This document shows, one piece after another, positions 1 through 3,000 of a stretch of DNA of 63,284 bases (position 1 is the first letter of the stretch; each line of letters begins with the position of its first letter). Origin of the DNA: a virus (taxonomy: Duplodnaviria > Heunggongvirae > Uroviricota > Caudoviricetes); the IMG/VR virus record IMGVR_UViG_2877982868_000011; one strand, 5' to 3'. The position numbers were made by a program.

Positions 1-3000
1 CTAGTTGTCGCTTTTGCCGTGACTGCTCTTGCCACCTTTTTTACCTGCTTCTGATGCTCTTTCGCGGTCTTCTGCAAAATTGCCGGAACCGCCTCGATGG
101 TTTGCCATTACTGACCTCCGTCTGGGTATAGACATCATATTGCTAGAATTAACGCGGCGTATGGCGGCTGCCATATTTTCGCTACGTGGGACTAAGCTTA
201 GTGAACTGACGTGTTTCTACCCGCGTTTGGTAATATCCTGCAACAGCTTCTTAGCGAGAATAGATATCATCTCCAATAATTATCCATAAGCCGCTCTTAT
301 GATTAAAAAAACGCGATGAGATAAAAATGTGTCATTTTGCGACAAAATTGCGTGCTTGTGAAAGTTGTTATAAATCAAATAAGTGGTTGTGAAATTTGCA
401 CTCTGAAAAGGACGTCTTATCTTTAAATAAGTGGTAGCGAATCGCTACGGAATAGAGATAACACGAGGAGTGGTTAGAAATGGCTAAAGTTCTGGTGCTT
501 TATTATTCCATGTACGGACATATTGAAACCATGAAGCATTAAAAACACAGAATTACCGAAGATCGTCCAAGAGCATATATTTTTCAATCTGTTACACCTC
601 ATTTTGACCATGAAGAAATCAATTTTACACCGTTCTTTATACGTTCTTTTTTGCCCCAAATATGCCCCAAACAACCACATTTTGCCCCAATAGTGCCCCA
701 AACATTTAAGGGGATTTAACTTGATATTTCAGATAATTAACGCAAGTTTGCGATGCGAATTTGCGTTAATTTTCTGGATGAGGCATTTACCGTTACCCGT
801 TCATCAATATTCCGCTGATTGACAAATCCTCCAGAGCTATCGCATACTGACCGCACTGAACAAATAAGCGGTCTCCGCACCCGATAGCTTTGCGGCTTTT
901 TTATGCCTGCAATTTGGCATAGTTACATCCGTACAAAGGTCGGGTGGAGAGGCGTAATACAACACCCGCAAGGGGAATATGCCCAGAGCTTCTTATTTGG
1001 CTCAGTTGACACCCGACCGCCAGCTACTAACTGGCGGTTATAAACTAAACAAATAAGGAGGTCATCATGACCAGTCAACTCATCCCCGTATTCAACGGCA
1101 CTATCGCCAACGAAACCACTCTTCTCGTTAATGCCCGTGATTTACATACTTTTCTTGGAGTAGGTAAACGCTTTGCATCGTGGATTACAGAACGTATTGA
1201 AGAGTACGGATTCGTTGAAAATCAGGACTATATAGCTATTTCCCAGAAACGGGAAATAGGTTATGGGCGAGGGAAAAAAGACTACCACCTTACCCTCGAT
1301 ACAGCCAAAGAAACGGCGATGGTAGAGCGTAACGAAAAAGGCCGACAGATACGCAGATACTTCATCGAGTGCGAAAAGAAACTTCGCAACATGCAGTCGG
1401 CACAAGCAGAACCACAGCAACAATTCACAGACGAGGAAATCATCCTCCTCTGCTACATGCAACTCTGGATGGAAAAAGCCCAGGACCTCAGCAAACACCT
1501 GTATCCGATCATGAAAGAGCTGAACTCCTCATACACGAACAAGCTGTATGACATTGCGTTTGAGACCATCTACATGGTGACGAAGAACAGAGATGTGCTA
1601 CTGAGAGAGGCGGCACGGCTTGACCAGTCGAGTTTCGTAGTTCAGCGGGCCAGACCAATGCTGAAAAGCCTGCGGGCAAGGCAATTCGAATTCTAAAACC
1701 AAAGGAGCTTCGGCTCCTTTTTTCATGCCTGAAGGAAAGGAAAATGGCAGATATCATCGACAACGCCGCTGAAATCGAAGAATTGCAGCGCAATCTCTCC
1801 CTGCAAAAATACAAATCCGATAGTAATGCCCCATCTGCTACTCATTGTTGCGAGTGTGGCGATCCGATAGATGAGCGGCGACGCCTGGCTGTTCGTGGAT
1901 GCAGAGCTTGCGCCAGTTGCCAGCAGGATATTGAACTTATCAACAAACAGAGAGGTGTGAAGTGAACATCAACACCACGATAACGATCGATACAGCCCTG
2001 AACACCGGCCTAGCGCTCCTTGGTTATTTCTACATCATGTTCTGCAGCGGACGATGGCTGTCACTGTTGTTCATGAAAAAATGGAATAAACGCCGTAAGC
2101 AGGAGCAACGCCAAAAGGCAATAGATGCATTTTTCGAAGCCTTCGGTATTGACGGCATGGAACCAGGGGATCCAGCTCGCGCAATTAGCAGAGGGGGCGT
2201 AGTAATCCTTGTATACCGGAGTGAAGAGAAAAATGAGCAAGATTGACTATCAGGCACTGCGTGAAAAGGCAGAGAAAGCAACTAAAGGAAGCTACATCGT
2301 AGGGCATACATCTGTTAACCAGCACGGCAATTTAACAGGAGTTTTTGTTTGCCAAAAATGGAAAGGAGAACCCGGTGGCGTGATTGCAGAATGTCATGTT
2401 AACTGCCTGGTTGAAACAGATGCTCAGGCTTATGCAACGCTGAATTCATAGCAGAGGCTAACCCGGCTACCGTGCTGGAACTGCTGGATGAACGGGAAAG
2501 AAACCAGCAATACATCAAACGCCGCGACCAGGAGAACGAGGAGATTGCGCTTACGGTTGGGAAGCTGAGAGTTGAGCTGGGAGCAGCAGAGAACAACCTT
2601 ATTGATAGTGAATGCCATGTTGCTGAACTGGAAGAAGCGCTACGCGATAAGCAGGCGTTACTTGAAGCATCAGAGAAGCGCATAGCAGAACTGGAAGCCG
2701 AACTCGTAAGCCAAACTTACAAGTTGCCACACACGCAGTTTGAACAGATTGCTAACCTCTACGAAATGCAATTTGATGACGGTCGCACTTGTGCCTTTCA
2801 CACTGATGCGCAAAAGGCTGAGCAATGGCTTCAGGCGTGCGACGGAAACAGGGTTCAGGAATACGTTAAGCTGGAACGGTTGCAGAATGCGCTGTCTGGC
2901 AACTCTCCGGTAACTCCGGATGGTTGGATAAGTTGTAGTGAGCGAATGCCGGATACCAAAACAGCCGTTCTTGTTGCCGTGGAGTTTGACAGGAAAGGTG

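Follow-up and report, generated by a model that had tools for sequence, protein, structure and literature searches.

The attachment site investigated in this study belongs to a Shiga toxin 2 (Stx2) prophage and is contained in a stretch of 63,284 nucleotides of viral DNA (IMG/VR record IMGVR_UViG_2877982868_000011), whose whole length we refer to as the window. Its closest described counterparts are found in phage lambda, in the rac prophage of Escherichia coli K-12 and in previously sequenced Stx phages. In lambda, a heterobivalent integrase (Int) with an N-terminal arm-binding domain acts on a phage attachment site (attP) in which inverted core-type sites surround a 7-bp overlap, with adjacent arm sites on a short int-proximal arm, further arm sites on a long int-distal arm beyond those for the integration host factor (IHF) and the recombination directionality factor (RDF), and xis located upstream of int. 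The lambda arm-type sites are P1, P2 and P'1-P'3, its core-type sites are C and C', and its attP also has sites for Fis. The IntR/XisR pair of rac and the 'IntBPP-1' subgroup of integrases combine an arm domain of the DUF3596/PF12167 type with a DUF1233 excisionase, as does the element described here. The integrase of a Stx2a phage has been named in this subgroup, whose members were termed putative (Smyshlyaev et al. 2021, PMC8138268), and the literature that we searched names no arm sites for it. The GenBank records of 933W, Stx2 phage I, Stx2 phage II and VT2-Sakai (AF125520, AP004402, AP005154 and AP000422) describe the same element or near-identical relatives. They list a repeat block as 'repeat_region, arrangement g / gg, region III', without function, and contain no annotation of a related doublet on the int side. 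The attachment core is given as TTGAAAC in 933W, both Stx2 phages and the LC645xxx series, as TGAAAC in VT2-Sakai, and the wrbA site as TTGAAACSAT by Delannoy et al. (PMC5592225). Public records thus already contain the insertion site and the core, which are textbook knowledge, and also show that a repeat block exists. An assignment or characterisation of arm-type sites for 933W, for Stx or IntR integrases or for DUF3596 was not found in the searched literature; Plunkett et al. (1999) may mention the repeats.

Positions 519-702 of the window constitute the int-distal junction of the Stx2 prophage Sp5/VT2-Sakai, a relative of 933W, in the E. coli gene wrbA. Window positions 400-1100 are 100% and positions 62300-63284 are 99.7% identical to VT2-Sakai (AP000422), and both junction regions show at least 99% identity to 933W and to many further Stx-converting phages. 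In the orientation of the window the junction at 519-702 is attL, whereas the same end is named attR in the GenBank record of 933W. We consider it highly likely that attP of Sp5 is a lambda-type attachment site for a heterobivalent tyrosine integrase, in which repeats of the motif TGCCCCA constitute predicted arm-type sites. In kind, it is probably an ordinary lambda-type attP, whose repeats would add one more member to a class of sites already known.

The repeats, of sequence TGCCCCAA(A/T), start at positions 652, 663, 683 and 694 of the int-distal arm and are throughout located on the plus strand. A third doublet, which was absent from the list of an earlier note on this DNA, is found on the other arm within the 3' end of int, with its copies at 62649 and 62660 likewise 11 bp apart on the same strand. 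The predicted sites, with distances measured from the core centre, and a further unit found in two relatives are:

652..660, plus strand: predicted distal arm-type site 1, TGCCCCAAA, at +126
663..671, plus strand: predicted distal arm-type site 2, TGCCCCAAA, at +137
683..691, plus strand: predicted distal arm-type site 3, TGCCCCAAT, at +157
694..702, plus strand: predicted distal arm-type site 4, TGCCCCAAA, at +168
62649..62657, plus strand: predicted int-proximal arm-type site 1, TGCCCCAGA, at -85, in int codons 417-420
62660..62668, plus strand: predicted int-proximal arm-type site 2, TGCCCCAAA, at -74, in int codons 421-424
933W stretch 121-210 and Stx2 phage I stretch 750-819 (coordinates of the fetched sequences): extra 31-bp unit, annotated as 'gg'

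With spacings of 11, 20 and 11 bp, the distal copies form two 11-bp doublets in an imperfect 31-bp direct repeat (649-673 and 680-704). The earlier note had described four evenly phased repeats, of which the four positions and the strand hold; the copies are helically phased (offsets of 11, 31 and 42 bp), but their spacing is uneven. The clustering observed at the junction is pronounced, as none of 1000 first-order Markov simulations contained three or more matches (with at most one mismatch) within 60 bp, where the window has four. The 9-mer is not over-represented across the window (15 matches with at most one mismatch versus 21 expected), and its significance rests on the clustering at the two junctions and on the doublet TGYCCCA-N4-TGYCCCA, which occurs three times in 63 kb, always in an att arm and on the same strand, with an expectation of 0.17. 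Tandem Repeats Finder reported no repeat at 400-1000, the array being too short and diverged, and the 31-bp unit was recovered by a direct-repeat search. The extra unit of 933W and Stx2 phage I brings their number of distal copies to six, compared to four in Sp5 and Stx2 phage II, with all of them integrating at wrbA; in Stx1_9793, distal site 4 reads CGCCCCAAA. Two other candidates, a repeat of ACCATGAAG at 528 and 607 and an inverted match of the core (518-528) to 582-592, were judged to be at chance level; rac, with its unrelated core, shares the element at 582-594.

The protein expected to recognise these repeats is encoded at the opposite end of the window, together with an excisionase located directly upstream:

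61399..62709, plus strand: integrase of 436 amino acids, with residues 7-70 forming the arm-binding domain and residues 202-395 the catalytic domain (PF00589)
61047..61346, plus strand: excisionase-like gene (DUF1233), given as the longest open reading frame with the true start probably later, homologous to rac XisR and to the xis of Sp15

The N-terminus of Int matches the family Arm-DNA-bind_2 (PF12167/DUF3596) with an E-value of 6e-26. An AlphaFold (AF2) model of residues 1-90 contains three strands and a helix at high confidence, and it shows weak structural resemblance to AP2 domains and the arm-binding domain of the HPI integrase. The presence of this domain, the copies of the motif on both arms, the conservation of motif and geometry in related elements and the association of the doublet with int genes in viral contigs all argue for the arm-site reading that the earlier note had proposed, and the TGCCCCA(A/T) repeats are thus very probably, as far as sequence allows to predict, binding sites of the N-terminal domain of Int.

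The conservation of motif and geometry was observed in a comparison with five other elements, whose Int proteins are 47-67% identical, with rac judged by its similarity to PHB10:

Sp15: Int identity 65-66%, proximal doublet GTGTCCCATGTATGCCCCATAA, distal copies TGTCCCATACATGCCCCATTGATGCCCCATAA
SaltyDalty: Int identity 62-63%, proximal doublet and distal copies present
Stx2_499: Int identity 67%, proximal doublet and distal copies present
PHB10: Int identity 47%, motif TGCCCCT in both the proximal and the distal arm
rac (K-12): Int identity not computed, resembling PHB10, proximal doublet and distal copies present

Despite different cores and targets, all five retain the motif, the 11-bp spacing of the doublets and their orientation, with a gap of 187-200 bp between the second proximal and the first distal site. 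The full layout, consisting of the proximal doublet, a core of the form GTCAYR-N7-YRTGAC and two to six distal copies, recurs in Sp15 and Stx2_499, and the doublets with their spacing recur in SaltyDalty, PHB10 and rac without this core consensus. In rac, attL and attR show the same arrangement of doublet, core and cluster with the motif TTTGCCCC(A/T/C); unlike in Sp5, the core identity of 26 bp is located in ttcA and lacks GTCAYR-N7-YRTGAC, and the proximal doublet is non-coding. The latter follows the int stop codon also in PHB10, and in the other elements the doublet falls into two different reading frames of the poorly conserved C-terminal tail of Int, which places the constraint on the DNA and not on the protein. 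The comparison with related phage attP sequences, which the earlier note had named as a check, thus found the motif, the doublet spacing and the geometry conserved.

A wider survey extends these relationships. The doublet is present in 48 of the 49 distinct int 3' ends taken from IMG/VR, which show 66-71% identity, with variable bases between and around its copies, and the remaining contig ends within the doublet. Conversely, of the 120 sampled viral-contig matches to TGCCCCA-N4-TGCCCCA, 67 are no more than 400 bp away from where an Int homologue on the same strand has its 3' end, and several of the others resemble int-distal arms. In the more distant phage phiCTX, whose arm-binding domain is 40% identical, GTTCCCA doublets with copies 11 bp apart lie on either side of the annotated attP core. 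This core is a tRNA-Ser core. The motif differs at two positions from that of Sp5 and the distal doublet is found only about 70 bp from the core; the flanking repeats of phiCTX are annotated as R1 and R2 only. The architecture is demonstrated down to an Int identity of about 47%, and in a related version in phiCTX. Seven IMG/VR contigs (L124, L135, L160, L163, L164, L166 and L172) carry TTTGCCCCATTTTTGCCCCA after several TGGCAT repeats, with no homologue of the Sp5 integrase in the fetched stretch; this group may represent distal arms belonging to a related element, or a different system that uses the same doublet.

The features of both junctions define the site at which recombination would take place:

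480..529, plus strand: 5' portion of wrbA, reaching from its start codon through the final base of the crossover core, with 100% identity to the intact gene
517..522, plus strand: predicted core-type half-site B on the host side, GACATA, assigned from the inverted-repeat consensus
523..529, plus strand: attL copy of the 7-bp identity TTGAAAC, the presumed overlap, listed in GenBank as att core or insertion duplication
530..535, plus strand: predicted core-type half-site C' on the phage side, CATGAA
62725..62730, plus strand: predicted core-type half-site C on the phage side, GTCATG, assigned from the inverted-repeat consensus
62731..62737, plus strand: attR copy of the core TTGAAAC, assigned from the 15-mer match and the attB reconstruction
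62738..63284, plus strand: 3' part of wrbA, opening with half-site B', GATGGC, at 62738-62743

A degenerate 15-mer that is found as CATATTGAAACCATG at 519-533 (attL) and as CATGTTGAAACGATG at 62727-62741 (attR), the latter starting 18 bp after the end of int, has these two matches only in the whole window, with none expected by chance. Joined at TTGAAAC, the flanks 380-529 and 62738 onward are identical at 300 of 300 positions to intact wrbA from many O157 genomes, which places strand exchange inside TTGAAAC or at its edges. DNA in its phage form, obtained from particles of Stx2 phage II (AP005154), contains the predicted attP CATGTTGAAACCATG followed by the window's own arm, and Asadulghani et al. 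(PMC2669165, Fig S5) induced Sp5 itself, amplified its circular attP junction and determined the sequence. The two 15-mers, the reconstructed attachment site of the bacterium (attB) and the phage-form attP uphold the earlier claim that wrbA is broken at a core that recurs at the other junction, and the alignment to uninterrupted wrbA that had been named as its check supports this position of the crossover.

The identity to wrbA is unbroken up to position 529, and base 530 is a C compared to a G in attB, so that the exchange must fall between 522 and 530. Moreover, attL has the attB base A522 at its left and the attP base C530 at its right, with the reverse found in attR, a pattern which confines both strand exchanges to the 7-bp identity. 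The observed sequences of attP (GTCATG-TTGAAAC-CATGAA) and attB (GACATA-TTGAAAC-GATGGC) both describe inverted core-type sites around this identity, with the two mismatched positions corresponding to the innermost bases of the half-sites. The suggestion of the earlier note that the mismatches between both cores may mark the boundaries of the overlap is supported by this 7-bp spacer and by the recurrence of the architecture in Sp15 and Stx2_499, and we find it plausible that the mismatches flank and mark a 7-bp overlap. The pattern GTCAYR-N7-YRTGAC is present with at most one mismatch in the attP of Sp5, Sp15 and Stx2_499, each of which has another target, and its centre is in all three located 73-74 bp from the second proximal arm site, with a chance expectation of 0.012 matches per 450 bp. 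The cores of the two relatives are:

Sp15: GTCACG-TTACGCG-CGTGAC, target yehV
Stx2_499: GTCACA-TTAACTG-CATGAC

The half-site at 62725-62730 reads GTCATG in the window and GACATG in Stx2 phage II and one IMG/VR copy, a single-base polymorphism in the presumed core-binding site of Int.

Several observations concern the interrupted gene itself. In the prophage, the wrbA frame runs on to a stop codon at 540-542, which would result in a peptide of 20 amino acids, MAKVLVLYYSMYGHIETMKH. At the other junction, a phage-derived ATG overlapping the int stop codon (ATGA) starts an in-frame fusion to the 3' part of wrbA (62706-63284), where the first 17 WrbA residues are replaced and a phage-encoded HVETM mimics the native HIETM. 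The product of this fusion probably lacks the first beta-strand and the flavin mononucleotide (FMN) loop, and its function is doubtful. Of the 5417 complete E. coli genomes with a match, about 290 do not cover 80% or more of the 300-bp query of intact wrbA in any one place, which provides a rough estimate of how frequently the site is interrupted.

Between the core and the distal repeats, the long arm contains two further elements of potential relevance:

558..574, plus strand: conserved box GAAGATCGTCCAAGAGC, candidate excisionase (RDF) site from the alignment of int-distal arms
582..594, plus strand: IHF-like site TTTCAATCTGTTA, a consensus match only, with one mismatch to WATCAANNNNTTR and an A/T-rich upstream tract

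When the int-distal arms of Sp5, Sp15, SaltyDalty and Stx2_499 are aligned, two islands of conservation stand out, the box at 558-574 and the arm-site doublet, besides scattered invariant columns. All elements compared in this alignment encode a DUF1233 excisionase, and in rac, XisR was found to shift the int-distal att fragment (PMC4632033). The conservation of the box, the shared excisionase and the shift of the corresponding fragment make it a candidate RDF site. The box includes a GATC (Dam) site in Sp5, Sp15 and SaltyDalty, and in the latter two a similar ATCGAY half-repeat located 10 bp upstream suggests a tandem binding site. The IHF-like site has a nearly identical equivalent in the distal arm of rac, TTTCAATGTGTTA. 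Just beyond the outermost arm site, positions 728-778 form a strong hairpin with a 23-bp stem (minimum free energy of the RNA -27.9 kcal/mol, z -7.2), which in the circular phage form follows int downstream at a distance of about 240 bp, on the int-coding strand, and thus corresponds in position to lambda sib/tI. Sp15 lacks this hairpin, and in Stx1_9793 it shows one compensatory change, with one pair gained and one disrupted.

The described features place Sp5 close to lambda, from which it is nevertheless distinguished in several respects. The arm domain of Sp5 belongs to PF12167 and that of the lambda type to PF09003, and the motif TGCCCCA differs from C/AAGTCACTAT of lambda. The P2 arm site of lambda is inverted, whereas all copies of the Sp5 motif share one orientation. 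The identity between attP and attB extends over 7 bp in Sp5 compared to 15 bp in lambda, and the int-proximal arm of Sp5 is located inside the int coding sequence. Unlike those of lambda, the arm sites of Sp5 are predicted from sequence.

Three other explanations for the repeats were considered, all of which are disfavoured by the distribution of the motif over two arms and its conservation throughout the family. The repeats might be recognised by the excisionase or another accessory protein instead of the arm domain of integrase, which we regard as improbable. Such a role would be in line with their head-to-tail layout at about 11 bp, which resembles the arrays X1, X1.5 and X2 bound by lambda Xis at a similar interval; RDF sites are, however, normally confined to one arm, whereas the motif is found on both arms of attP, in or beside the 3' end of int, in every family member examined. 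The int-distal fragment shifted by XisR of rac (PMC4632033) would also contain such repeats, but the other conserved element of this arm, the box at 558-574, is the better RDF candidate, and in viral contigs the doublet tracks the int gene. Very unlikely in our view is a function as operator or promoter elements, either for the neighbouring antirepressor-like gene at 1067-1696 or for leftward transcription. Although the repeats reside in a non-coding stretch of 530 bp upstream of this gene of the AntA/AntB family, the sole promoter-like match at 819-848 is located well downstream of them, further copies are found within int, and the distance between repeats and core remains fixed in Sp15, SaltyDalty, rac and PHB10, where the neighbours differ (dinI, cold-shock and SOS-peptidase genes). 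Hardly credible is their origin as functionless products of a 31-bp unit multiplied by slippage or tandem duplication, since attP sequences with otherwise unalignable flanks and with Int proteins of 47-67% identity share both the 7-bp motif and the 11-bp doublet, and since the doublet also occurs on the other arm, even if the block is an imperfect 31-bp direct repeat, contains one further unit in 933W and Stx2 phage I and carries no label in GenBank other than that of a repeat region.

In the mechanism that we propose for the TGCCCCA repeats as arm-type sites, the N-terminal domain of Int would bind to the head-to-tail doublets of TGCCCCA(A/T) with their 11-bp spacing, one of them on the int side at a distance of 74-85 bp from the core and two on the other side at 126-176 bp, with the core-binding and catalytic domains engaging the core-type sites. 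A bending of the long arm, likely at the IHF-like site at 582-594, would bring the arm-bound Int protomers to the core, where a recombinogenic tetramer would assemble and exchange strands with wrbA across TTGAAAC. For excision, the DUF1233 excisionase is assumed to remodel the long arm, probably via the conserved box at 558-574. The contacts between protein and DNA in this model, the exact positions of cleavage and the roles of IHF and Xis are predictions.

A number of points weigh against this description or against parts of it. Neither Int binding to the repeats nor mutational evidence on them was found in the searched literature, and phiNP, JBD68 and phiES15 (Int 28-33% identical) show no obvious repeated motif beside int. 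The distal copy number varies between four and six at one shared site, and not every copy need thus be functional. As concerns the core, an overlap of 6 bp inside TTGAAAC is possible, and the candidate IHF-like site at 582-594 is a one-mismatch match to the consensus only.

As an observation outside the attachment site, a 9-bp tandem repeat GTGCAGCCA is present in five copies at 60206-60250, where it encodes (VQP)n in an open reading frame of 129 amino acids (60011-60400).

Phages of the Sp5 and 933W type carry stx2 in E. coli O157:H7, and their integration into and excision from wrbA underlies the spread of the toxin gene and the typing of strains. The value added by our study is modest and consists of a model of the whole attP at the level of its sequence, comprising core-type sites, a 7-bp overlap, six arm sites and candidate sites for IHF and Xis. 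This model covers an integrase subgroup with DUF3596 arm domain that is still termed putative, its geometry is conserved over several att specificities, and it opens the binding of integrase, the control of directionality and the influence of arm-site copy number to direct testing. It also provides TGCCCCA-N4-TGCCCCA as a simple marker for delimiting prophages of the Sp5 type. More tentatively, doublets of TG(C/T)CCCA with copies 11 bp apart, placed at about 74 bp from the crossover towards int and at about 120-140 bp from it in the other direction, could represent a general arm-site code of the DUF3596 ('IntBPP-1'/IntR) subgroup, in which the number of distal copies (four in Sp5, six in 933W) might tune the efficiency of integration or excision and hence the stability of Stx prophages. 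If this were true, many prophages of enterobacteria, the main Stx phages among them, would have an attP, attL and attR that are predictable from sequence.

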